From contig JBBQNJ010000012.1 in NCBI GenBank assembly GCA_038329845.1, positions 1 through 64,000 on the forward strand: a stretch of 64,000 nucleotides of DNA, written 5' to 3'. The stretch's first letter is position 1, and the number at the start of each line of letters is the position of its first letter. The translations under genes were made by a program, and so were the position numbers. Below, piece by piece: positions 3,437 to 51,080 of the stretch. Under the pieces are notes generated by a model, which was not told where the DNA came from, ran no database searches, and saw only the letters and a list, made by a program, of their open reading frames with translations. The DNA is from Tepidisphaerales bacterium. GTDB lineage: Bacteria > Planctomycetota > Phycisphaerae > Tepidisphaerales > Tepidisphaeraceae.

Positions 3437-3690
3437 AATGTCACAGTGTAGGGATGTCGGTGCCGAAAAGACGACAGGGGGAGAAGCAGAATATTCCCGG
3501 TGGCGGCGGTGAGCCTGTCGATTCAGGCCAAATTTCGATCGCCGATCGGTCTTGGCGCTTTAAGAACCGGATTTGAAATCTGAAATTGAGATCGATCGGA
3601 CGAGCGCTTCTGGAGGTAAATAGAGCGGCTACCGGAGGAGTGTTTCGGGGGGGGGGCGTGGGTGCGGTTCGAGGGAATATTCTGGATGTC

Positions 3691-3792
3691 TCGAACGCCA
3701 CTCACTTAAGGGCCGAAGTTGGCGAACTCAACTGTATTCTCGGCCGATAAGGCGGCTTTCCCCAGCCTTTTCACGTTAAGTGAATGGCATTC
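3691..3792. mobile_element. MITE-like 102-bp element, copy 1. It has 17-bp terminal inverted repeats GAATGCCATTCACTTAA and is flanked by direct repeats of CTGGATGTC.
   Basis: Reverse complement aligns nearly base-for-base with 18751-18852. Termini gaacgccactcacttaag…cttaagtgaatggcattc. CTGGATGTC is present on both sides. Confidence 0.7.
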
Positions 3793-3883
3793 TGGATGTC
3801 CCCTTTGCCCAAGCGGGCAAAAAAAATCCCCAGCCAGAATGGTTGGGGGTTTGGGGTTACGTCCCATGTTTACAGGGGCGAGG

Positions 3884-5073: not shown

Positions 5074-6225
5074 TTACTCCCCTTCGCGTTGGATGGTTTG
5101 GAGGATTTCCTGCGCCAGGTAAATGCGATTGCGCTTTTGGCCGGTCAATTCGTTGAGAATGCCGGCGGTGAGAAGTTTGTCGATGGCCTTCTGAGCCGAA
5201 CTGAACTGCACATTAAGGATCTGGGCGGCGTGGCTGGTCGTGATGGCCGGATCGATGAAGAGCTGATCCACCAGCGTTGGAAGCAAGGCGGAGGCTCGGG
5301 CGGTGCGCACCCGGCGCTGATATTCGGTTCGCAACAGGTCCAGCTTCTGCACTCGGTCCATCGCATCGGTGGCTTCATGCGCCACGCCGCGGGCGAAGAA
5401 GGTCACCCATTGATTCCACGTCCCGCGCTGGCTGACGTTTAGGAGATGGCGGTAGTATTCGGCACGGTGTCGTTCCAAAAAGGCGCTGGGATTCAGCAGG
5501 GGCACGGGCAACACTTTCTGGGTACCCAGCAGCAGCAGGATGAGTACGCGCCCGATGCGCCCATTGCCATCGGCGAACGGGTGAATGGTTTCAAACTGAT
5601 AGTGGATCATTGCCACGCGGGCCAGAGGCGGCAGAGGGCTGGGTGAACGAATGAATTGTTCCAACTGCTCCATCGCCGGGCCAACTTCGTGCGGCGGGGC
5701 GGGGACAAACGTGGCGTCGGCGATATTGTTCGTGCGTCCGATGTGGGCTTGAACCGAGCGAAAGCGCCCGGGTGTTTTATCTTCCCCGCGTGCATCCTGC
5801 ATCAGAAGCTGGTGCATTTCGCGGATCAGGTCCAGACTGATGGGCCGATGCTGGACCTGTGCCAGGCCCCACTCCAAGGCGCGGAAGTTGTTGTCCACCT
5901 CTCGCACATCGGGGGCACGCTGTTCGGCCGACCGCGTCTGATCGAACAGCACCAGGTCTTTTAGACCGGCGTGGGTTCCCTCGATGCGACTGGACAATTC
6001 CGCTTCGCGGCGCAGGAATGACCGGACCAGCAGCGCGGGATTGGGAAGGCGTTGGCCGACGCCGGCGAGCTGCCCGATCGCCCGATCCGCCGTCGACAGA
6101 GCCGAGACCAGTTCGTCCGACCAGGAAAGCTTGCCCGGCAGCGGAGAGGGGACGAAGCACCAATCGCCGCTGAGATTGCGGACCAGCTCGCCGGACTTGT
6201 CGTCGGTGAAATCAGTGATTTGCAC
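5074..6225 (-). CDS. Fic-family protein (class II, with an intramolecular inhibitory helix) and a C-terminal wHTH-like tail. GTG start.
   Basis: Fic motif HPFADGNGRIGR. Upstream SSRIEG matches the (S/T)xxxE(G/N) inhibitory motif. Confidence 0.85.
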   Translation of the reverse strand: MQITDFTDDKSGELVRNLSGDWCFVPSPLPGKLSWSDELVSALSTADRAIGQLAGVGQRLPNPALLVRSFLRREAELSSRIEGTHAGLKDLVLFDQTRSAEQRAPDVREVDNNFRALEWGLAQVQHRPISLDLIREMHQLLMQDARGEDKTPGRFRSVQAHIGRTNNIADATFVPAPPHEVGPAMEQLEQFIRSPSPLPPLARVAMIHYQFETIHPFADGNGRIGRVLILLLLGTQKVLPVPLLNPSAFLERHRAEYYRHLLNVSQRGTWNQWVTFFARGVAHEATDAMDRVQKLDLLRTEYQRRVRTARASALLPTLVDQLFIDPAITTSHAAQILNVQFSSAQKAIDKLLTAGILNELTGQKRNRIYLAQEILQTIQREGE

Positions 6226-10791: not shown

Positions 10792-12030
10792 TTAGAAACC
10801 GCCTCCGCTGACGCTGCGTAGCAGCCACAGAAGCGGCGCGAACATCGCCAGGATCACCGCCACGATGATCAAGCCGATCACGATCAGCAGCAGCGGGGAG
10901 AGAATCGCCGGGATGGTGGCGATGCGATGCTGGGCCTGCTGCTGGTACATCCGCGAGAGGGTGGCGAGGGTTTGCGAGAGGCTGTTGCGTACGGCGGCGA
11001 TGGACATCGCGGCGATGACGGTGGGTGGGATTGCGCGCAGGTGAGTGGCGGCCGCGGCGAGCGATTCACCGCGCATCATCGCCTCGTGTAGCACTATCGC
11101 GTCGCGGCGCAGCACCGGGGTGGCGACGGCGTCGGCGGCGAGGTCAAGCGATCCGGGCAGGTCGATCCCGGCGTCGATGCCGAGGCGCATCGCATCGCAC
11201 CAGCGGGCGAGTCTCGCCTTCTGGACGATGCGCCCGATGAGCGGAAGATGAACGAGCAGTTGATCGCCCAGATTGATCCCCATCATCGCGAGAATCCACA
11301 CGCCGAGGATGCATACGACCAGGGCCGCGGCGACCACGGCGCTGATCAGGGGCAGGCGATGGGCAAGGTAGAAGAGGGTCCCGGTGAAGGCGGGCACCTG
11401 CGTTCGGAACCCCTGGAAGATCTCTTCGAAGCGCGGGACGACGTAGAGCAATAGAATGGCCATGACTCCGATCAACGTCGCCAGCACCGCGACGGGATAG
11501 GCCATCGCCCGCCATAGGGCTTGGCGAAGGCGAGCGATCATTTCCAGGTGGGCGCCGAGATTCAGCAGCATTTCCGGCAGTCGGCCGGAGCGGACGCCGG
11601 CATCGACCAGGCGGGCATACAGTCGCGGGAACTGGGCGCGGTGATGCTCGATCGCTTGGGGCAATGACACACCGCGATCCAGCTCATCGCAGACCTGCGC
11701 CACCGAGCGGGCCAGGCGGCCGCTGCGCATGTCCTGGGCGATGAGGCGCAGGCCCTGCTCCAGCGGCATCCCGGCCTGGGCCAGGCTCGCCAGTTGCTGA
11801 TTGAATGCAGCGAAATCGGCGCCGCGGATCGGCCGGGGTCGCGGCGGCGGGTCGGCGGGGATCATCTCGATCACGCGAAGGCCGAGGGACTCGAGGCGAA
11901 GGCGCGCCGTGTCCATGTCGGCGGACTCGATCGTGCCGGATAGCGGCGCGCCGTCACGCGATTGGGCGTGGTAGGAGAAGTTCAGCGGCGCGGGTGGGGG
12001 GTCGGGAGTATCGTCAAGCATGGGGATCAC
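10792..12030 (-). CDS. gspF: GspF/PilC-family inner-membrane platform protein, paralog 1.
   Basis: 412 aa, cytoplasmic N-domain + TM helices typical of T2SS/T4P platform proteins. Directly downstream of gspE. Confidence 0.8.
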   Translation of the reverse strand: MIPMLDDTPDPPPAPLNFSYHAQSRDGAPLSGTIESADMDTARLRLESLGLRVIEMIPADPPPRPRPIRGADFAAFNQQLASLAQAGMPLEQGLRLIAQDMRSGRLARSVAQVCDELDRGVSLPQAIEHHRAQFPRLYARLVDAGVRSGRLPEMLLNLGAHLEMIARLRQALWRAMAYPVAVLATLIGVMAILLLYVVPRFEEIFQGFRTQVPAFTGTLFYLAHRLPLISAVVAAALVVCILGVWILAMMGINLGDQLLVHLPLIGRIVQKARLARWCDAMRLGIDAGIDLPGSLDLAADAVATPVLRRDAIVLHEAMMRGESLAAAATHLRAIPPTVIAAMSIAAVRNSLSQTLATLSRMYQQQAQHRIATIPAILSPLLLIVIGLIIVAVILAMFAPLLWLLRSVSGGGF

Positions 12031-12075
12031 CTTGGGTCATCTGGGATTCCTCGCGCGGCGTCGGCGATGGCATCG

Positions 12076-13245
12076 TCAGGCATGGACGTGACCTCGGGTC
12101 ATTTGGGATTCTTCGCTCGGCGTCGGCGCTGCGGGGTTTGTTTCGGGCGGGCCGAGGACGCGAGAAACTTCGGCGTGATCGGTGATCCCTCGGGCGACCA
12201 GGTCATCGGCGGCTTGACGCAATGGAACATAGCCGGTCAGGCGCTGCGCCGTGCGGCGCATCGCATCGGCATCGGCGCGGTCCAGGATCAGTTGTCGCCA
12301 GGCCGGGTCCATCGCCGCGAGTTCGGCCAGGGGGGTTCGCCCGGCGTATCGTGCTGTGCCATCGGCGCTGGCGAGGCGACGGATCAGCCGCAGCGCCAGC
12401 ACGCCGTGGACGGCGCTGGTGAGCTGATAGGGCGCGATGCCCATGTCGAGCAGGCGCCCGACGGCGCCGGCGGGGTCGGAGGCGTGCAAGGTGCAGAGCA
12501 GGCGATGGCCCGACAGTGCGGCCTGGATCGCCAGGGCGGCGGTCGCGGCGTCACGGATTTCGCCGAGCATCAAGACCTGCGGGTCCTGGCGAAGAATACT
12601 GCGCAGAGCCCGCTCGTACGTCAGTTCGCCGAAGGGGGAAACTTCGATCTGTGTTATGCCGTCGAGCCGGCGCTCGACGGGGTCTTCGAGGGTGATGATG
12701 CTCAGTCCGGGATGCGTGTCGGCGATCAACTTGAGGAGGGCGTAGAGGGTGGTGGTTTTGCCCGAGCCGGCCGGGCCGGTGACGATGAGCATCCCGGCGT
12801 CGGCGGCGGCGTATCGGCGCAGCGCCGCGACGATGGGGGAGGGCAATCCCAACGCATCGAGAGATCGCGGTGCGGTCAGCTCGGCGGGCAATCGCACCAC
12901 CGCCCGAAGGCCGTGGGCGGTGGGGATCACCGCGAGGCGCGCCTCGGCGGGCTGGGTCGATCCCGGCGGGGCGGGGATGGCGAGGCGTCCTTCCTGGGGG
13001 ATGTCCTGGCGGTAGGTGAGCAACTGGGCCATGACCATCAGTCGGTTGACCATGGCCCGCCCGGCGGCGGCGGAATGGCGCTGGGCGGTCTCGACCAGCC
13101 CATCGACGCGAAGGCGCAGCTCGTATCCTTGCGCCGTCGGCTCGACGTGGATGTCGGAGGCCCGGCGGCGCATCGCCTCGATCAGCAAGCTCTGGAGAAT
13201 CTCCGGAGCCTGCGTGTCGCTCGCCGAGGATGCTGACGATCGCAT
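12076..13245 (-). CDS. gspE: Short GspE/PilB-family secretion ATPase (N2 + C-terminal ATPase domains only, no N1 domain, no tetracysteine motif), ComGA-like.
   Basis: Walker A GPAGSGKTTT. N2 motifs ASDIHVEP…RLRVDG. Asp box and His box context (ILRQDPQVLMLGEIRD). Confidence 0.85.
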   Translation of the reverse strand: MRSSASSASDTQAPEILQSLLIEAMRRRASDIHVEPTAQGYELRLRVDGLVETAQRHSAAAGRAMVNRLMVMAQLLTYRQDIPQEGRLAIPAPPGSTQPAEARLAVIPTAHGLRAVVRLPAELTAPRSLDALGLPSPIVAALRRYAAADAGMLIVTGPAGSGKTTTLYALLKLIADTHPGLSIITLEDPVERRLDGITQIEVSPFGELTYERALRSILRQDPQVLMLGEIRDAATAALAIQAALSGHRLLCTLHASDPAGAVGRLLDMGIAPYQLTSAVHGVLALRLIRRLASADGTARYAGRTPLAELAAMDPAWRQLILDRADADAMRRTAQRLTGYVPLRQAADDLVARGITDHAEVSRVLGPPETNPAAPTPSEESQMTRGHVHA

Positions 13246-13330: not shown

Positions 13331-13378
13331 TTGCACTGGACCCCGCATCGCCGTGGCGGGTATCGGCGCCAAAAGGCG
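13331..13378. promoter_or_regulatory. ~47-bp conserved motif (TGCAsTGGmCCyyGCATCGCCGTGGCGGGTATCGGCsCyArAAGGC) upstream of the gspE operon. A second copy is at 15314-15360.
   Basis: ~85% identical copies lie in two different promoter regions. Adjacent TCTTTTCTRTTGT motif also at 15365 and 15430. Confidence 0.4.
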
Positions 13379-14873: not shown

Positions 14874-15313
14874 GGTAAACTGATAGGAACTTTAATTCCG
14901 CGGGGGTTTATGGAATGGTTTGAGGGAGCGGGGGGTTCGGGGGAGCGGGGGGAGTTTTCGGGACTCATTTCGCCCTCCAAGAGGCCCAATCCCATCGCTG
15001 AGACACGCCGTGAAGCCTACTTCGCGGTTTCCTTGACGCCCGGAGACCGTCCTCGAGCAACTCGAATCCAGAGTACCACCGGTCTCGATGCAAGCAAGAA
15101 CGAATGAAGGGGACGTCGCTCTTCACGCCGGAGATGGGGCGCAACTGCTGACCGTGCTGAGCGACTGGCCGGTGGAGCGGCCGCGCGACCGGACTTCCTG
15201 GGTAAGCCAGCCGCAGACGGCGGCGGAACTGGCTTCACCGCGCGAACACGTGCGCCGCGGCCGGCCATACGGCGACGAGGCGTGGACCGCCAGACGGCGT
15301 GGCAACTGGATCT

Positions 15314-15360
15314 GCAGTGGCCCTTGCATCGCCGTGGCGGGTATCGGCCTCAGAAGGCAC
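15314..15360. promoter_or_regulatory. Second copy of the 47-bp conserved motif, inside an 865-bp non-coding region between the sulfatase and nfeD.
   Basis: See 13331-13378. Followed by two TCTTTTCTATTGT repeats and GCAAGATGsCTGC repeats. Confidence 0.4.
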
Positions 15361-15740
15361 CGGAATGGTGGATGTTATCTTTTCTATTGTCGACAAAAAC
15401 CGAAACCTCTCTTTACACCACAGAGAACATCTTTTCTATTGTGTGCCGGGCGTCCATGCAGGCAAGATGCCTGCCCCCCAAGCGGGGTGGCCATGCGGGC
15501 AAGATGGCTGCACCCCGAGGGGGCTGGGCTGCGATGCTATTGCGGTGATGTGGCGTAGCCGGATGAAAAGGACTTGGGGAGTGCGACTATAAGAAGCAAA
15601 GGGGATTGGAACGCGGTTTTGATTGACATCGCCGGATGGGCGTTCGATGATCTTGGGCGTCGAGTCGCGGCACGGGGCTGACGCGGCGCTGCGGCGGCTG
15701 CGGCGGCTGCGGCGGTGGGGGCGGGTCGGCGGAGAAAGTC

Positions 15741-16352
15741 ATGGAACGCATCTATGTCATTTCGGCGGTGGTCGGCGGGACGCTGTTCGTCTGCCAGTTC
15801 ATCCTGGGGTTGATCGGGGTTTCGCATGTCGGAGGGGACGTGGGGATGGATCATGACCTGGGGGCCGATCATGACTTGGGCGGCGATCACGACGCCGGTC
15901 ATGCCGCCCAGTCGCATGGTGATTCGTGGTTTCTGGGGATCTTCAGTCTCCGTGCCATCGTGGCGGCGATCACCGCCTTCGGACTGGGCGGGATGGTTGC
16001 GACGCGATCGGGATATGGCGGCGGCGTCTCGGCCGCGGCGGCGCTGCTGGTGGGGTTGATCGCCATGGGGGTCGTCGCCGCGGCGATGCGGGCGATGCTG
16101 AAGCTGCGCGACGATGGCACCATCCGGGTGGCCAACGCCGTCGGGCTGACCGGGACCGTCTATCTGACCATCCCCGGGGAAAAAGCGGGTTTTGGGAAAG
16201 TCACGCTCGATCTTCAAAACCGTTCGAGCGAGTTTTCCGCGGCCACGTTCCATCACGAACTAGCGACGGGGACGAAGGTCGTCGTCGTCGATGTCATCGC
16301 GCCCGACACCCTGGAGGTGATCGCGGCGCCGGAAAGCCCAAGGAGTGCATGA
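15741..16352 (+). CDS. NfeD-like membrane protein (YqiJ/YuaF type, C-terminal OB-fold), partner of flotillin.
   Basis: N-terminal TM helices, Asp/His-rich loop, C-terminal beta-rich domain. TGA overlaps the flotillin ATG. Confidence 0.75.
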   Translation: MERIYVISAVVGGTLFVCQFILGLIGVSHVGGDVGMDHDLGADHDLGGDHDAGHAAQSHGDSWFLGIFSLRAIVAAITAFGLGGMVATRSGYGGGVSAAAALLVGLIAMGVVAAAMRAMLKLRDDGTIRVANAVGLTGTVYLTIPGEKAGFGKVTLDLQNRSSEFSAATFHHELATGTKVVVVDVIAPDTLEVIAAPESPRSA

Positions 16353-18016
16353 TGTCCAGCGCGATTGTCCCGGCTTCGTGGTTGCCTTTGTTGGCTGAGC
16401 GTTCGTCGGCCAGCAGCGATTCGACGTTCTGGCTGCTGGCGCTGGTCCTGTTCGTCGCGGCGCTGTTCGTCACCTTCTTTCTGCTGCTGTTCAATCGCTA
16501 CAAGCGCTGCCCGAGCAATCGGGTGCTGGTGATCTTCGGCAAGATCGGCGGGGGCAACACGGCCCGCTGTATCCACGGCGGGGCGGCGTTCATCTGGCCG
16601 TTGATCCAGGACCACGCCTACCTCAGCCTCGAGCCGATCCAGATCGACATCGAGCTGCATGATGCGCTGTCCAACGAGAACATTCGCGTGAACATCCCCA
16701 GCGTCTTCACCGTCGCCATCGGGACCGACCCGGCGATTATGCAGAACGCGGCAATCCGGCTGCTGGGGCTGAATACCATGCAGATCAAGCAGCAGGCGTC
16801 GGACATCATCTTCGGCCAGCTTCGCCAGGTGATCGCGTCGATGCGCATCGAAGACATCAACCGCGACCGCGAGGCGTTTTTGCACAATATCCAGACGTCG
16901 CTGGAGCCGGAACTGCGCAAGGTCGGGCTGGTGTTAATCAACGTGAACCTGCGCGACATCACCGACGCCAGCGGGTACATCGAGGCGATCGGGCAGAAGG
17001 CCGCCAGCCAGGCGATCCAGCAGGCTCGCGGCGATGTGGCCGACCAGGAAAAGCTCGGCGAGGTGCGCGTGGCCGAAGCGCGGCGGGAGAAGGACATCCA
17101 GGTGGCCAACGCGTTGAAGACCCGCGAGATTGGCATGCGCGAGGCGCAGCGAGAGCAGCTTGTGCGGGTGGCCCAGCTCGAGAAGGAACAGAAGGTCGGC
17201 GAGCAGACCGCCGGTTACGAGCGGGATGTGCAGGTGAAGGCGGCCGAGCGTGAGATGCGCATCAGCGTCGCCGATGCCAACGCCAAGGCGATCGCCGGTG
17301 AGGCCAAGGCGCAGGCCGAGGTCGTCGCCACCCAGGCGCAGTTGCAGGTCAAGCAGGCCGAGGCGTATCAATTGGGCGAGACCCGCAAGCGCGAGAGCGA
17401 GGCGGCGGTGCAGGAAGCGCAGAACCGTGCGATGGCGAAGGCGGCTTTGGCCCAGGCCGAGCGCGTCGAGGCCGAGCGGCGGGCGGCGGTGGAGGCACCG
17501 GCCAAGGCCGAAAAAGCGAAGATGATCGTGGATGCCGAGGCGTCGGCGGAAAAGCGTCGGATCGAGGCTCAGGGCGAGGCATCGGCGATCTTCGCCAAGC
17601 TCGAGGCCGAGGCCCGCGGGCAGTTCGAGATTCTCGCCCGCAAGGGAGAGGGTCTCAAGCAGATCATCGACGCCGCGGGCGGGGCCAAGGAGGCGTTTCA
17701 GTTGCTCATGCTCGAACACCTCGATCATCTGGCATTGACCGCGGCGCAGGCGATCAGCAACATCAAGTTCGACAAGGTGGTGGTCTGGGAAAACGGCTCG
17801 GGGGGCAGCGGCAACGGCAACGGCAACGGATCAAGCGCCACCGGCAACTTCCTGCAAAGCATGTCGCGCACGCTGCCTCCGATGATGCAGGTGATGCGTG
17901 ACATCGGCGGGGTTGAGCTGCCGGACTACCTGGTCAAGCTCAAGGACGACGTCGTGGCGGCCAACGTCGATGTCCCGCCGGGGCCGACTCCCAAGCGGGA
18001 AGCCGGGGAAACCTGA
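16349..18016 (+). CDS. Flotillin-like SPFH/band-7 protein (YqiK/FloT type).
   Basis: N-terminal TM, SPFH domain, long Ala/Glu/Lys-rich coiled-coil. RBS aaggag upstream. The track ORF 15926.. has an artefactual N-terminal extension. Confidence 0.85.
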   Translation: MMSSAIVPASWLPLLAERSSASSDSTFWLLALVLFVAALFVTFFLLLFNRYKRCPSNRVLVIFGKIGGGNTARCIHGGAAFIWPLIQDHAYLSLEPIQIDIELHDALSNENIRVNIPSVFTVAIGTDPAIMQNAAIRLLGLNTMQIKQQASDIIFGQLRQVIASMRIEDINRDREAFLHNIQTSLEPELRKVGLVLINVNLRDITDASGYIEAIGQKAASQAIQQARGDVADQEKLGEVRVAEARREKDIQVANALKTREIGMREAQREQLVRVAQLEKEQKVGEQTAGYERDVQVKAAEREMRISVADANAKAIAGEAKAQAEVVATQAQLQVKQAEAYQLGETRKRESEAAVQEAQNRAMAKAALAQAERVEAERRAAVEAPAKAEKAKMIVDAEASAEKRRIEAQGEASAIFAKLEAEARGQFEILARKGEGLKQIIDAAGGAKEAFQLLMLEHLDHLALTAAQAISNIKFDKVVVWENGSGGSGNGNGNGSSATGNFLQSMSRTLPPMMQVMRDIGGVELPDYLVKLKDDVVAANVDVPPGPTPKREAGET

Positions 18017-18078
18017 GGCGGGCGGTTGCCGGCGCGGCGGAAACGGTGGATGTCACCTTTTCCCATGTCAGTGGCCGA
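17975..18078. repeat. Native flotillin 3' end plus downstream ~60 bp. A diverged copy of this ~100-bp segment lies at 18672-18880, beyond hicBA.
   Basis: ccgccggggccgactcccaagcgggaagccggggaaacc…ggaaacggtggatgtcaccttttcccatgtc versus gcgccgccgactcccaagcaggaagccgaggaaatt…ggaaacggtggatgtcac[MITE]gtggatgtcaccttttcccaagtc. Confidence 0.65.
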
Positions 18079-18189
18079 ACCCACGTTATGAAGTCGGGGG
18101 GGTCTGGTAGGCCGTCGGGCCCGGGCCGTTGTGCCCAGGCCGAACGCCCCGCCCGGCTTTCTTCAGGCTTGAGTGGTTCATGCGGAGAA

Positions 18190-18225
18190 GATGGATTGCC
18201 CTTGCTCCGCCAGAAGAGCTAGAAT
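18190..18225 (+). promoter_or_regulatory. Candidate sigma70-like promoter for hicBA (TTGCCC/TTGCTC … TAGAAT), giving a near-leaderless hicB mRNA.
   Basis: TAGAAT lies ~10 nt upstream of the hicB ATG with TTGC-type hexamers 13-18 nt further upstream. Confidence 0.3.
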
Positions 18226-18231
18226 GCGGAT

Positions 18232-18450
18232 ATGCGAAGACTCACTGCCTTTGTTCATCATGGGGAGCCCGACGAAGGCGGATTCTGGGCGACATGTCTG
18301 GAGGTTCCTGGTGCCAATGGCCAGGGCCAGACCAGGGACGAGTGTCTGGACGACCTTAAGCAAGCCATTGAACTGCTGCTTGACACCGAACGCGAGGAAG
18401 TGTTCCGACTCGACCCCCGGGTCGAGGCCACGGAACTGGTGCTGGCATGA
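18232..18450 (+). CDS. hicB: HicB-family antitoxin (UPF0150-type).
   Basis: 72 aa, FVHHGEPDEGGFWATCLEVPGANGQGQTRDECLDDLKQAIELLL matches the HicB N-domain. 4-nt ATGA overlap with hicA. Confidence 0.75.
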   Translation: MRRLTAFVHHGEPDEGGFWATCLEVPGANGQGQTRDECLDDLKQAIELLLDTEREEVFRLDPRVEATELVLA

Positions 18451-18641
18451 AGCGGAAGGCATTGCTGGGCCACCTTCAGCAACATGGCTGCGTGCCGGTT
18501 CGCGAAGGTGCCAGTCACTCCATCTGGACTAATCCGCAGACTCACCGCAAGGAAGCCATTCCCAGACACCATGAGATCAAGAAATACCTGGCGCGGTTCA
18601 TCTGCCGCAACCTGTCAGTGCCAGTCCCGGCTGGGGAGTGA
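18447..18641 (+). CDS. hicA: HicA-family mRNA-interferase toxin.
   Basis: 64 aa, KRKALLGHLQQHGCVPVREGASHSIWTNP…IPRHHEIK matches the HicA/YcfA family. Confidence 0.8.
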   Translation: MKRKALLGHLQQHGCVPVREGASHSIWTNPQTHRKEAIPRHHEIKKYLARFICRNLSVPVPAGE

Positions 18642-18671
18642 GCAGTCATACAGAAATAGTGGATGGCGGCC

Positions 18672-18880
18672 GCGCCGCCGACTCCCAAGCAGGAAGCCGA
18701 GGAAATTTGGGGCCGGCGATCGCCGGTGCGGGGGAAACGGTGGATGTCACGAATGCCATTCACTTAACGTGAAAACGGTCGGGAAAAGCCGCCTTAGCGG
18801 CGCGAGACTGCAGTTGAGTTTGCCGACTTTGACCCTTAAGTGAATGGCATTCGTGGATGTCACCTTTTCCCAAGTCGGGC
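18672..18880. repeat. Displaced, diverged copy of the flotillin 3' end (stop codon lost), interrupted by the MITE at 18751-18852.
   Basis: See 17975-18078. Confidence 0.6.
18751..18852. mobile_element. MITE-like 102-bp element, copy 2. 17-bp TIR GAATGCCATTCACTTAA and an 11-bp target-site duplication GTGGATGTCAC.
   Basis: Perfect TIRs gaatgccattcacttaa / ttaagtgaatggcattc. Flanking gtggatgtcac on both sides. An uninterrupted site (ggaaacggtggatgtcaccttttccc) exists at 18040-18066. Confidence 0.8.
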
Positions 18881-18951
18881 AGGGTCGCGAGGGTGCGGGT
18901 ATGCGAAAAAGAAGGGCGTTGGATGGGCGAGATCGTGCGATTGATGGAGGG

Positions 18952-19824
18952 TTAATCGGGGGGGAGGTCGCGGAGTTTTTGGCGGACGAGGGCTTCGCGG
19001 CGGAGGGAGGCGGCGTCGAGCCAGTGGCGCAGGGCGTCGGGGTGCTGGGGGTCGTCGAGCATTTGCAGGAATTCGTCGATTTGATGGCGCAGGCGGAGAA
19101 AACCGGTGCGGAGGTTGTCGGCGTTGTCGTAGAAGATGTCGCGCCACAGGCCGCCGTCGCCGGAGGCGATTCGGGTGGTGTCGAGAAAACCCTTGCCGGA
19201 CAGGGGCAACGCCTCGTCGGATTGCATGGCCACCAGTGCCGCGGCGAGGGCGTGGGGCAGATGGCTGATGTCGGCGAGGCGGCGATCATGATCCTCGGGG
19301 GACAATTCCACGCAGCGCATCCGAAGGGTCTGCCAGAACTCGCGTACTTGGCGCAGGGCGTGCGGGTCGGTTTGCTCGGTGGGGGTGAGGATGCAGGTGG
19401 CGCCGACGAACAGGTCGGCGCGGGCGTACTCGACGCCTCGTTTTTCGCTGCCGGCCATGGGGTGGCTGCCGACGAAATGGGCTTTGCCGGCCAGGATTTC
19501 CTCGCCGAGCTGGACGATGGATCGCTTGGTCGATCCGACATCGGTGACGATGGCGCCGGGCCGGACCGCCTGGGCAATTTTTTTCAGCAGGGGGCCGAAC
19601 GTGCCGACCGGGGTGCAGAGAATGATCAGATCGGCCTCGGTCACCGCCGTGACGGGGTCGGATTCGGCGTGATCGATGGCGGCGGATTCGATGGCCGCAT
19701 CTAAACTTTGTCGTCGATGTCCATAACCTATGATTTTACAGTCCATTGCGGCGGCGCGGATCGCCAGTCCGATGCTTCCGCCCAGCAGTCCCACGCCCAG
19801 CAGGCTAACGGTCGAAAAGCCCAT
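18952..19824 (-). CDS. tyrA: Prephenate/arogenate dehydrogenase.
   Basis: N-terminal Rossmann GxGxxG (LLGVGLLGGSIGLA) and a conserved TyrA core (HPMAGSEKRGVEYA). Confidence 0.85.
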   Translation of the reverse strand: MGFSTVSLLGVGLLGGSIGLAIRAAAMDCKIIGYGHRRQSLDAAIESAAIDHAESDPVTAVTEADLIILCTPVGTFGPLLKKIAQAVRPGAIVTDVGSTKRSIVQLGEEILAGKAHFVGSHPMAGSEKRGVEYARADLFVGATCILTPTEQTDPHALRQVREFWQTLRMRCVELSPEDHDRRLADISHLPHALAAALVAMQSDEALPLSGKGFLDTTRIASGDGGLWRDIFYDNADNLRTGFLRLRHQIDEFLQMLDDPQHPDALRHWLDAASLRREALVRQKLRDLPPD

Positions 19825-21161: not shown

Positions 21162-21262
21162 CGCGGCGGAGAGGACCCGAAAAGCAAATTCTCTCGCAAC
21201 GCCGCCACGACGCCACGAAATACGGAAAAACTTTAACCTTTTGTCTTACGTTGCGTCGTGCC
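21162..21262. repeat. Copy 2 of the hairpin repeat family (see 228-335), between the convergent accA and purQ genes.
   Basis: Alignment to the reverse complement of 228-335. 12-bp stem cacgacgccacg/cgttgcgtcgtg with a ~30-nt loop. Confidence 0.6.
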
Positions 21263-31670: not shown

Positions 31671-31872
31671 TTTTGTAGGGTGGGGCTTGCCCCACCATTT
31701 CCGAATGGCAACGAAATGGGTAACACTTCAGCCGTCTGCCGCGATTCCCGTTTTTGCGGCCTCAGTCAAGTTGGGTCTGTCTGCTGACCCGCGATATCAG
31801 CCTCAGAATCAACGTGCCGGCATTTGGCTGAAATGTGACCGAAATGGTGGGGCAAGCCCCACCCTACAGAAA
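31671..31872. mobile_element. ~120-bp repeat element (core 31724-31840, 8-13-bp imperfect TIRs cacTTCAGCCG) embedded between two 30-bp perfect inverted repeats, each containing a GGTGGGGC-nn-GCCCCACC hairpin. Second core copy at 50965-51080.
   Basis: Core aligns ~92% to 50965-51080. Flanked here by direct CGAAATGG. Outer palindrome ttttgtagggtggggcttgccccaccatttc … gaaatggtggggcaagccccaccctacagaaa. Confidence 0.65.
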
Positions 31873-33727: not shown

Positions 33728-33825
33728 GAGCCGGATGATACCCGAGTCCGGGCCGTTGCGGGGGATGAGGGCTCTGGGCCGGATTGGCCCCGCGGGACGA
33801 TCTACGATCGCGATCCGATGGCGGT

Positions 33826-33980
33826 GGAGGTCGAGCGGATGATCTTGGGAATCACGTGCTGGGTGGTGAGGGTATCGGCGCGATCGAGCATTTGCGCGAA
33901 GATTTTTCTCCAGCGGCTCGGTTCGGCGGTCACCCCAGTAGCGGCGAAGGCTCAGGTAGACGTTGATACGCCCGAAAGAG
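33826..33980 (-). pseudogene. Diverged ~155-bp fragment copying the 3' end (last ~45 codons, stop retained) of the hypothetical gene at 34407-35156.
   Basis: ~85% nucleotide identity to 34407-34572 with one 1-bp indel. Translated tail …PKIIRSTSTAIGSRS* versus …MPKIVKSISSAIASRS*. Confidence 0.6.
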
Positions 33981-34037
33981 TCAAGACGCCCGAAAGAGTC
34001 AAGACGCCCGAAAGGGTCAAGACGCCCGAAAGGGTCA
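33963..34037. repeat. Tandem repeat of 4-5 copies of an 18-bp unit (ACGCCCGAAAGRGTCAAG).
   Basis: gagtcaagacgcccgaaagagtcaagacgcccgaaagagtcaagacgcccgaaagggtcaagacgcccgaaagggtcagg. Confidence 0.85.
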
Positions 34038-34118
34038 GGTGCATCGGATCAGGCGTGAGGCTCCGAAAGCCGAGGTGCTGCACTTGGAGTGGGCTTTCCG
34101 CCAACGCGGTGAGCGCAT

Positions 34119-34370
34119 GTGAGCGACTGGCACCAGAGGGACCTGACCCTTTCGGCCTTCCTTGATGACCACGACTTTTCAAACCCTTGGAAATGTCTCA
34201 ATGCTGCCCGGGTGAAGTATATGAAGGCCTCCGAGGGGGTCCGCCGGAGGATTCGAGAGGATCCGGAAGTCGCTGAGTCGGTTCTATTGAAAGCAGGAAT
34301 CGTTGTCGAGGAGAAGTCCGGTTCATCTCGATTTGGCGTGAAGTTGGCCAAGCGGTTCCGAACTGCTTGA
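34119..34370 (+). CDS. Hypothetical small protein (83 aa) in a lower-GC pocket between the 3'-end duplicate and its parent gene. Coding status uncertain.
   Basis: Open frame with moderate, non-repetitive composition (…VKYMKASEGVRRRIREDPEVAESVLLKAGIVVEEK…). No recognisable family. Confidence 0.3.
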   Translation: MSDWHQRDLTLSAFLDDHDFSNPWKCLNAARVKYMKASEGVRRRIREDPEVAESVLLKAGIVVEEKSGSSRFGVKLAKRFRTA

Positions 34371-34406
34371 CCTCGAGCTTGGGTGTTGCCGTTGCCGCGT
34401 CGCGGG

Positions 34407-35156
34407 CTAGGAGCGCGAGGCGATGGCGCTGGAGATGGACTTGACGATCTTCGGCATGACGTGATGGTTGGCCAGGGTATCGGCGCGATCGAGCATTTGC
34501 GCGAAGATTTTCTCCAGCGGCTCGGTTGGGCGGTCGCCCCAGTAGCGGCGAAGGATCAGGTAGACGCTGATGGCGTCCTCGGAATAGTCGCCGGTGCGGA
34601 CTTGGTAGCTGTTGGTGCGGGTGACCACGTCGATGCGGGCTTGCAGCCGGCAGTCGTCGCTGAGGGCGACGATGACGCTGGGCTGGAAATCGACGGGTCT
34701 GGCGCCGGGCTCTTCGGCCAGGCAAGACAGGGGGCTGTCGGCGAAGAGGCTGTCGGCGACGATCTCATCGTGATTGCCGGTGCAGTTCAGGTCGAACCCG
34801 AAGAGCAGATCGAGGTAGTCGATCTCGAGGGGGCTGACGCCGAGGTGGAACGGGGCCAGTTCGAGCAGCAGGCCATGCAGTTTCAGGGTTTCATCCAGGC
34901 TCTGGGGATTGACGTGGCCGCTGTAGAGTCGGCGCGCCTCGAGCGACGCCCAGCGATATGACGGGTTGCGCCGGTCTTCCTCGAGGGTGACTTCGCCACC
35001 CTCGCCTTTTCGCAGCCGCCCCATCGCCGGGAAAGCCTTTTGCACGCGCTCGAAGAAATGCAGCACGGTCTCCCGGCTGTTGGGCAGGGCAAGCTGCGAT
35101 CCGAGTCGCATGTTGACGTAGAAATCGTCGCAAAAGGGGCAATACGGATTCGACAT
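34407..35156 (-). CDS. Hypothetical protein (249 aa, N-terminal CPFC motif).
   Basis: Long ORF with balanced composition. Its 3' end is duplicated at 33826-33980. Confidence 0.6.
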   Translation of the reverse strand: MSNPYCPFCDDFYVNMRLGSQLALPNSRETVLHFFERVQKAFPAMGRLRKGEGGEVTLEEDRRNPSYRWASLEARRLYSGHVNPQSLDETLKLHGLLLELAPFHLGVSPLEIDYLDLLFGFDLNCTGNHDEIVADSLFADSPLSCLAEEPGARPVDFQPSVIVALSDDCRLQARIDVVTRTNSYQVRTGDYSEDAISVYLILRRYWGDRPTEPLEKIFAQMLDRADTLANHHVMPKIVKSISSAIASRS

Positions 35157-41711: not shown

Positions 41712-42089
41712 CTAATAGGCGCGTAACATTGAAAGCCTCTCAAAGGTGGCAAAGTGCTTCACGTTGAGGGTATGCACCGCCAACTCGGGCCGCAACGCGG
41801 TGGCCGCGATCTGACAGTCCGGCCAATCTACCCCATGTGAAAGTCGCCTTTTCTTCAAAAGATCGAGCGCCGCCAAGGCATCGGCTTCGCTCGGGGAGAT
41901 GATCTCGCATAATCCTAAAAACGACTCCATGCGATCTTGCTCTTCTCGATTGCGATCGCCGACCAAAATCTCCGTGGCAGCCATGACGGGTGTCGCCAGT
42001 AGCGCTTGCGATCCGACGTGTCTGACCGCCGCTTCCCTGCCGCGCAAGCAATCGATCAGGATGGAACTGTCCAAAATGGCGCTACTCAT
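41712..42089 (-). CDS. vapC: PIN-domain ribonuclease toxin (VapC-like).
   Basis: 125 aa. Conserved acidic residues (ILDSSILID…, E in TEILVGD, D in HGVDWPD). Overlaps the upstream antitoxin gene by 8 nt. Confidence 0.75.
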   Translation of the reverse strand: MSSAILDSSILIDCLRGREAAVRHVGSQALLATPVMAATEILVGDRNREEQDRMESFLGLCEIISPSEADALAALDLLKKRRLSHGVDWPDCQIAATALRPELAVHTLNVKHFATFERLSMLRAY

Positions 42090-50891: not shown

Positions 50892-50964
50892 ACGTTCGGT
50901 ATAAGTCTTTGCTAGACGGTCAGGGCCGGCGAGGCAACCGGCCTTGACCTTTCATATACTGCAA

Positions 50965-51080
50965 CACTTCAGCCGTCTGCCGCGATTCCCGTTTTGCGGC
51001 CTCAGTCAAGTTGAGTCTGTCTGCTGCCCCGCGATATCAGCCTCAGAATCAGCGTGGCGGCATTCGGCTGAAATGTTACC
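50965..51080. mobile_element. Copy 2 of the ~120-bp repeat element, immediately upstream of the response-regulator start codon.
   Basis: ~92% identity to 31724-31840. Flanking tatact / tatactct. Confidence 0.65.

Follow-up and report, generated by a model that had tools for sequence, protein, structure and literature searches.

A toxin–antitoxin (TA) cassette of the hicBA family lies directly behind a flotillin gene in a planctomycete genome, bracketed by two copies of the flotillin 3′ end. The locus is part of a 64,000-nt stretch, hereafter the window, from a Tepidisphaerales bacterium (assembly GCA_038329845.1, contig JBBQNJ010000012.1, positions 1 to 64,000 of the forward strand). From left to right the locus holds a gene for an NfeD-like membrane protein, flotillin with the proximal copy of its end (A1), hicB, hicA, a distal copy (A2) split by a miniature inverted-repeat transposable element (MITE), and the prephenate dehydrogenase gene tyrA (Table 1). 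TA pairs lie dispersed over bacterial chromosomes as isolated two-gene islets whose route of entry is usually invisible. Here an entry scar appears to be preserved, in the form of a displaced, decaying copy of the neighboring gene's 3′ end and terminator, and a second gene 16 kb away carries a like scar.

Repeat search, blastn and a gap-free alignment all recovered the duplication. The repeat search paired 17983–18056 with 18677–18750 (74 nt, 86%) and 18046–18069 with 18853–18876 (24 nt, 96%). Taking out the MITE together with one of its two target-duplication copies leaves A2 as 18677–18750 plus 18864–18878, which aligned with A1 without a gap over 89 nt at 86.5% identity (77/89); the first 83 nt by themselves reached 87.9%. 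Blastn of A1 against A2 gave E 1.5e-19. The copies are in direct orientation, 694 bp apart, and the whole segment occurs only twice in the window. The preliminary description of this locus had thus found and placed the duplication correctly, with slightly different dimensions: its figure of about 80% identity was a little low, its roughly 60 bp of downstream sequence measures 53 bp past the flotillin stop, and its roughly 15 codons become 11 without gaps or 20 with them. In the gapped version, an in-frame 15-bp gap may carry the homology back to 17955 in A1 (GTG GCG GCC) and 18663 in A2 (ATG GCG GCC).

A2 is decaying. It carries degenerative changes only: a lost stop, non-synonymous changes and the MITE. 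The stop codon has gone from TGA to TGG, as first described, and each of the four further coding differences changes an amino acid. Two blocks are identical between the copies, one of 14 nt in the coding part (17983–17996; GCCGACTCCCAAGC) and one of 27 nt past the stop (18039–18065). The flotillin tail beyond ...YLVKL is 27 aa long, where relatives mostly have 40–50 aa, and the tails of 120 relatives were too variable to tell whether A1 or A2 is the native copy. A fragment of the hairpin's left arm directly precedes A2; it is possibly the truncated terminator of an incoming cassette, or a chance match, for which a rough estimate gives a probability of about 0.03.

The repeat is neither a transposition scar nor a dispersed element. 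Because it is too long (about 89 bp) and its copies too diverged (86.5%), it is not a target-site duplication left by replicative transposition, in agreement with the preliminary description, and the insert has neither terminal inverted repeats nor a transposase. A dispersed element is ruled out for the whole repeat, which has two copies in the window and no match in about 0.9 Mb of related loci; the search for other copies of the roughly 100-bp segment that had been proposed, run over the window and these loci, came back empty. Only the last ~30 nt of the repeat, the hairpin H, recur, at 3670–3821 and 15356–15397.

The cassette pairs a predicted HicA toxin with a short HicB-like antitoxin. 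It shares with type II HicAB systems a HicA that exceeds the Pfam cut-off, a conserved His24, predicted to be catalytic and nearly invariant among 18 relatives, a 4-bp overlap with the upstream antitoxin gene, a probable promoter of its own and a patchy, horizontally transferred distribution. It differs in that the antitoxin gene comes first and in that the antitoxin is 72 aa long, with a weak UPF0150/TTHA1756 match, whereas studied HicB proteins have a C-terminal DNA-binding domain. The match to TTHA1756 (PDB 2yzt) reached E 0.006, and HicB chains matched weakly (E 0.6–1.3). Judged by its sequence, the antitoxin is without a DNA-binding domain, being too short for one. The same 72-aa gene precedes hicA with a 4-bp overlap at five other loci (L081 and L087–L090).

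Expression of hicBA is probably leaderless and driven by a promoter within the cassette, to judge from a single promoter-like site just upstream of hicB. Three unrelated hicBA loci (L081, L082 and L087) likewise have a −10-like hexamer, 6–8 nt ahead of the hicB ATG, and in all four unrelated cassettes the space before that ATG is too small for a ribosome-binding site. This suggests that leaderless expression is a conserved trait of the hicBA subfamily.

hicBA looks horizontally acquired, because its G+C content at third codon positions is low and its relatives sit in unrelated contexts. That content is 0.63 in hicB and 0.69 in hicA, against 0.78–0.88 in neighboring genes. We found 52 HicA relatives, at 53–84% identity. 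The closest (75–84% in amino acids) lie between unrelated housekeeping genes of other phyla: between aspS and unrelated genes in a Verrucomicrobiae metagenome-assembled genome, behind a BlaR-like peptidase, and between purL and an oxidoreductase. Wherever the gene call is clean, they are accompanied by the same 72-aa partner. Nucleotide similarity to related hicBA loci is confined to the open reading frames (ORFs), from 18236 to 18637. A mobile hicBA unit with conserved flanks is ruled out, as similarity to 11 related loci ends at the ORF ends and flanking repeats are absent.

Table 1. Features of the flotillin–hicBA locus, of the second MITE copy and of the second duplicated gene end (window coordinates).
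Feature	Coordinates	Strand	Evidence or remark
Second MITE copy, 86% identical, opposite orientation	3693–3792	.	within third hairpin-motif copy; flanks TGGATGTCTC / TGGATGTCCC
NfeD-like membrane protein, flotillin partner gene	15741–16352	+	tblastn: relative directly 5′ of flotillin in 78/80 related genome loci
Flotillin (SPFH/Band_7), 554 aa	16352–18016	+	Pfam Band_7, E 1e-26
Proximal copy A1: last 11 flotillin codons, TGA stop (18014–18016), 22-nt spacer, hairpin H1	17983–18071	+	repeat search, blastn, alignment
Hairpin motif H1 (GGAAACGGTGGATGTCACCTTTTCCCA), 27 nt, identical in A1 and A2	18039–18065	+	dispersed terminator-like family, MITE target
Promoter-like site TTGCCC-18-TAGAAT, ends 6 nt before hicB ATG	18196–18225	+	sole promoter-like match in 17800–19100; shuffles 0.2
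hicB-like antitoxin, 72 aa, UPF0150-like fold	18232–18450	+	Pfam UPF0150, E 0.0014, below cut-off
hicA toxin, 64 aa	18447–18641	+	Pfam HicA_toxin (PF07927), 35.8 bits, cut-off 27
Half copy of hairpin left arm, GAAATAGTGGATG, 11/13 to GAAACGGTGGATG	18653–18665	+	directly 5′ of distal repeat
Distal copy A2, left part: flotillin-tail homologue	18677–18750	+	repeat search, alignment
MITE, 102 bp, terminal inverted repeats GAATGCCATTCACTTAA, 11-bp target duplication GTGGATGTCAC (18740–18750, 18853–18863)	18751–18852	.	splits A2
Distal copy A2, right part: remainder of hairpin H2; homology to A1 stops here	18853–18878	+	repeat search, alignment
Prephenate dehydrogenase (tyrA)	18952–19824	-	Pfam PDH_N 8.8e-43, PDH_C 7.8e-16
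Distal pseudo-copy G2, 605 bp downstream	33802–33967	-	self-comparison, alignment
Insert, 439 bp, GC 0.588	33968–34406	.	18-bp tandem repeat, 15-bp inverted pair, orphan ORF
Proximal copy G1: last 55 codons of conserved 249-aa hypothetical protein (34407–35156)	34407–34571	-	self-comparison

A hairpin-targeting MITE

The element that splits A2 is a genuine, target-specific MITE, because every copy is flanked by a 10–11-nt duplication of a like target. The identification made in the preliminary description is borne out by its terminal inverted repeats, a perfect 17 nt, by the 11-bp duplication at its ends and by a total of 11 copies. The other copy in the window is flanked by TGGATGTC(T/C)C and then CTTTGCCCAAG, which share the orientation of the flanks at 18.7 kb and differ little from them in sequence. 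A two-repeat pattern search returned nine further copies in public metagenome contigs (L107–L115), all nine flanked by a 10–11-nt duplication of GGGACATCAC, GTGATGTCCC or ATGGATGCCAC. All 11 copies lie in a single 10–11-nt type of target (GGGACATCAC / GTGATGTCCC / GTGGATGTCAC), in many cases an arm of an A-run...T-run hairpin, which accepts insertion in either orientation. Mobile elements of Planctomycetota are poorly known, and this locus documents a MITE strictly specific for a terminator-like hairpin.

The hairpin itself is dispersed, with four copies in the window by profile search (3670–3821, 15356–15397, 18034–18072 and 18727–18881). The copy at 15356–15397 is decayed and lies in an 840-bp non-coding stretch 5′ of nfeD (14900–15740) that has internal repeats (ATCTTTTCTATTGT twice); this stretch also has a 46-nt segment in common with the spacer 3′ of a sulfatase gene (13332–13377, 85%). 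Insertion sequences and MITEs that target hairpins or sequences like repetitive extragenic palindromes (REPs) likewise use a hairpin arm that is duplicated on insertion. A remnant of a REP-associated transposase was dropped as a candidate when tblastn with the C-terminus of such a gene gave no match in the loci.

Other small repeats occur in the window. A MITE-like element has perfect 28-nt inverted repeats (31674–31701 and 31841–31868) around a 119-nt core that is found again at 50963–51080 (94%). An inverted 98-nt repeat (91%) links 239–334, near the window start, with 21163–21259, just 3′ of accA, and the copy at 239–334 is preceded by a solo MITE terminal repeat with two mismatches (186–202).

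A second duplicated gene end

Comparison of the window with itself revealed a second gene whose 3′ end is duplicated around an insert, a direct repeat of 166 nt at 86% identity (33802–33967 against 34407–34571). The gene encodes a conserved hypothetical protein whose relatives are all about 249 aa long and 69–74% identical. G1, the proximal copy, is contiguous with the gene; G2, the distal one, is a pseudo-copy. Relatives of this gene have neither the duplication nor integrases nearby.

Identity between G1 and G2 is a mosaic (Fisher p 1.3e-5). The first 99 nt are 96% identical, and here G2 is frameshifted by 1 nt and altered at three residues that are invariant or nearly invariant (95–98%) in the family. 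The last 67 nt are 72% identical, keep the frame and end in the same TAG; by hand count, this block has about nine synonymous and about ten mostly conservative non-synonymous differences. Because identity is mosaic and the stop codon shared, uniform decay in situ is disfavored in this case. As far as the alignment goes, the pattern agrees with an identity block common to both copies that gives way to a homeologous replacement 3′ end, not with the uniform decay of a local duplicate.

The second insert has repeats and a possible gene of its own. An 18-bp tandem repeat (ACGCCCGAAAGAGTCAAG, 3.9 units, 33968–34037) abuts G2, and about 105 nt lie between the arms of a perfect 15-nt inverted pair (CCGAAAGGGTCAGGT / ACCTGACCCTTTCGG; 34021–34155). 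These repeats may serve for recombinase binding or belong to a further small mobile element. For an orphan 83-aa ORF (34119–34370, plus strand), a search of 1.84 billion representatives returned a single weak relative (E 8.7e-4), and there was no Pfam or NCBIfam match.

Origin of the duplicated gene ends

The layout of the flotillin locus is already known from the cryptic prophage e14 in the Escherichia coli icd gene, and the locus is a further example of a known integration scar. In E. coli K-12 we measured 218 nt at 87% identity between the end of icd and icdC, the pseudo-fragment that lies on the other side of e14, in an alignment running through the stop and a terminator hairpin. At both loci the 3′ end of a protein-coding gene is duplicated in direct orientation, one copy contiguous with the gene and the other a pseudo-fragment beyond the insert, and both repeats span the coding end, stop and hairpin (86.5% over 89 bp here, 87% over 218 bp there). 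The e14/icd/icdC architecture is described in PMC13626634, which cites Hill, Gray and Brody 1989. The two loci differ in that e14 is 15.2 kb long and encodes an integrase and an excisionase, whereas the flotillin insert is 0.6 kb and holds hicBA alone; in that icd and icdC differ mostly by synonymous changes, whereas all differences in the flotillin tail are non-synonymous; and in that excision of e14 has been demonstrated, whereas the flotillin locus is known from sequence alone. Phage 21 uses the same icd site as e14.

Two other classes of footprint bear comparison. Genomic islands and prophages at the 3′ ends of tRNA and tmRNA genes and cis-mobilizable elements are also bounded by direct repeats that restore the 3′ end of the target, and integrase-less remnants of them are known; reportedly, remnants flanked by both att sites and without an integrase have been documented. 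They differ from the flotillin locus, where the target is protein-coding, the repeats differ at 13.5% of positions instead of being near-identical and no trans-acting integrase is known. In Rhs and CdiA systems, an incoming module is reported to recombine within a conserved upstream region and to push the old 3′ end downstream as a fragment. There too, a new 3′ end arrives with a small cargo and the old one is displaced; in contrast to the flotillin locus, with its short unconstrained C-terminus and unrelated TA pair, those systems have polymorphic toxin tips under diversifying selection and a cognate immunity cargo.

The explanation we favor, if tentatively, is that hicBA is a remnant of foreign DNA integrated, much as e14 is in icd, by a site-specific recombinase that has since been lost or that acted in trans. 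A Campbell-type event is indicated because direct repeats flank the insert. The preliminary description had proposed an attL/attR footprint with a replacement 3′ end, a model that closely matches a documented mechanism because the flotillin repeat has the content and identity of icd/icdC. The layout agrees with that model; its att sites gained no backing, as no integrase, attP-bearing element or empty site was found.

Under this explanation the foreign DNA would have entered the flotillin 3′ end Campbell-style, bringing along a diverged form, its own, of the last flotillin codons, the stop and the terminator hairpin. A crossover near the left edge of the repeat, in the 14-mer GCCGACTCCCAAGC or just 5′ of it, would have fused the incoming version in frame to flotillin as A1 and displaced the resident end 694 bp downstream as A2. 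An incoming 3′ end is favored because two diverged versions coexist, and survival of unselected DNA up to 17–28% divergence in place is harder to envisage. Bacterial genomes have a deletion bias, which makes it unlikely that unselected pseudo-fragments last long enough to diverge in place. Untranslated, A2 would then have decayed, losing its stop, acquiring the 15-bp gap and receiving the MITE in its hairpin, while the rest of the element, with any recombinase, would have been deleted or was never aboard. hicBA may persist through its putative leaderless promoter and its self-stabilizing, addictive nature, and A1 as part of flotillin; rightward deletions would be limited by tyrA, 75 bp past A2.

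Several observations weigh against site-specific integration. Among the 46 main ORFs of the window, none matches an integrase, recombinase or transposase family, so the statement that no integrase remains was accurate. We scanned genome contigs for flotillin to locate an empty site, a check proposed earlier, and obtained 80 loci, the best at 76% identity, none with downstream synteny and none with hicBA or tyrA nearby. We found no attP-bearing relative of the element, and related hicBA loci elsewhere lack flanking repeats. The flotillin insert and the second insert have no common core, their best match being a 12-mer (E 0.04), and two relics in 64 kb, each under 0.7 kb, are many for decayed integrative elements. 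The repeat itself offers little as a crossover site. The 27-nt identical block lies 3′ of the stop and, by its sequence relatives, is a dispersed terminator-like hairpin and the MITE's specific target, not an obvious crossover core; 5′ of the coding stretch that has diverged, the sole candidate core measures 14 nt. Heterogeneity along the flotillin repeat, with 82% identity in the left part against an identical hairpin, is not significant (Fisher p ~0.1). As all coding differences between A1 and A2 are non-synonymous, they offer no hint that both tails stayed functional, with the caveat that the flotillin tail is unconstrained among relatives anyway. Finally, in viral contigs we found neither hicBA nor a sequence mimicking the 3′ end of the second gene.

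The two closest flotillin relatives have other genes downstream, and an exact look-up found no record of the flotillin or of the HicA of the window. Phage origin was rejected, as neither a hicA relative nor a mimic of the C-terminus of the 249-aa protein was found in IMG/VR; three matches there to a back-translated RRYWGDRP pattern were chance. An integron attC cassette is not supported, in that neither copy has RYYYAAC ... GTTRRRY core sites and there is no integrase; the repeat shows no unusual fold (z −1.5 to +0.6). A diversity-generating retroelement is not supported either, with only 3 of 12 flotillin-repeat mismatches having A in the distal copy, second-case mismatches of all kinds and no reverse transcriptase in the window. 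Nor is a Xer/dif-like site: TTATGAAGT resembles a XerD arm but has no partner arm. A literature search on TA cassettes bracketed by gene-end duplications returned nothing specific.

Host recombination could have displaced the 3′ end with no recombinase of the element's own, a possibility we rate as real if on the unlikely side. DNA of a related lineage, carrying hicBA behind its flotillin terminator, would have been inserted either by a single RecA crossover of a circularized fragment within the homeologous flotillin end, or by anchoring in flotillin and an illegitimate joint at 18665/18666. The empty roster of recombinases in the window speaks for this route, as do the tiny inserts (0.6 and 0.44 kb) and the occurrence of two events in different genes with no common core. 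The half hairpin at 18653–18665 is severed exactly at the joint, like a truncated incoming terminator, and the repeat stops just past the terminator, where homology between donor and recipient would end. Homology-facilitated illegitimate recombination is reportedly an established route for foreign DNA in natural transformation, which also counts in its favor. Illegitimate-joint events, however, are said mostly to delete or replace recipient DNA rather than duplicate it. RecA, moreover, needs near identity; with part of the second repeat at 72%, that crossover would have had to fall in the 99-nt block, whose foreign origin would then be unexplained, and no donor-like sequence exists in public data. 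Integration by an integrase, RecA-driven insertion and, less likely, in-situ duplication are not separable, and RecA insertion of a circular or homeologous fragment leaves the same footprint. Should close relatives or reads of the source sample come to hand, the locus could discriminate between site-specific integration followed by decay and host recombination with homeologous DNA.

Duplication in situ appears improbable. About 100 bp of the flotillin end would have been duplicated at or just before hicBA insertion, through tandem duplication by slippage, fill-in of widely staggered breaks or template switching, and would have diverged in place, with selection or gene conversion keeping the hairpin identical. 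The joint GTGGATG|GCGGCC (18665/18666) does resemble a slippage junction from mid-hairpin (GGTGGATG|TCAC) to flotillin GTCGTG|GCGGCC; mismatches are mostly transitions (8/10), the coding changes are all non-synonymous, as neutral decay predicts, and the hairpin is an insertion hot spot. But unselected DNA would have had to diverge neutrally by 17% (flotillin) and 28% (second case) without being deleted. The second case, besides, is a marked mosaic (p 1.3e-5), with a diverged block that retains the frame and the place of the stop and in which many changes are synonymous or conservative. At two loci, in-situ duplication would call for either a coordinated pair of events or an uncommon mechanism. 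An assembly artefact, in which the assembler joined in tandem the variant flotillin ends of two strains or species, would suit a metagenome contig that is the single source of proteins with no other record, but it is very hard to credit, given distal copies with relic features alien to a co-assembled allele (lost stop, frameshift, MITE with intact target duplication), no shared k-mer path between insert ends and gene interior, and the same layout being well known from finished genomes.

Taken together, the two scars raise a broader idea, which we regard as a long shot: that this genome carries a class of tiny integrase-less cassettes, each pairing a small selfish or orphan cargo with a mimic of a target gene's 3′ end (and terminator). 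Just as speculatively, such cassettes would insert by replacing the 3′ end of the target, mobilized in trans by a recombinase or by host recombination. If such a class existed, two per 64 kb would translate into dozens to hundreds per genome, and TA pairs would have a general route to spread as "islets" without mobility genes.

Setting and other observations in the window

The window is a housekeeping region of 64% G+C, with suf, type II/IV secretion, sulfatase, accA, purQ-like, mnmA and recG genes. It bears planctomycete hallmarks, for example DUF1559 with an N-terminal methylation motif. The NfeD-like protein has no Pfam match. tyrA is convergent with flotillin. Beyond the source itself, the nearest flotillin relative among 5.8 billion proteins is at most 81% identical; because the next-best match is so distant, the source lineage is, on this protein's evidence, without a close relative in public data.

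Toxin-type genes also occur elsewhere amid the housekeeping genes. A PIN-domain (VapC-like) protein is encoded behind mnmA (41712–42089, minus strand) and a Fic/DOC protein at 5074–6225 (minus strand); at blastn sensitivity, no flanking duplications were detected around either. An Rfam scan of the window returned no known RNA family.

Duplications of other kinds are present as well. At the junction of the stop of the secretion ATPase gene (T2SSE) and the T2SSF start, a 57-nt tandem duplication (84%, 12010–12128) repeats the T2SSF start region within the end of the upstream T2SSE gene. An AT-rich array of ~137-bp units (455–970), with modules GGGAATGTGACATAATTG... and AAATAGTGGTGCGAAGGGTGTGG..., lies 3′ of an Fe-S assembly (PF01883) gene, and its last unit overlaps the final 10 nt of that gene.

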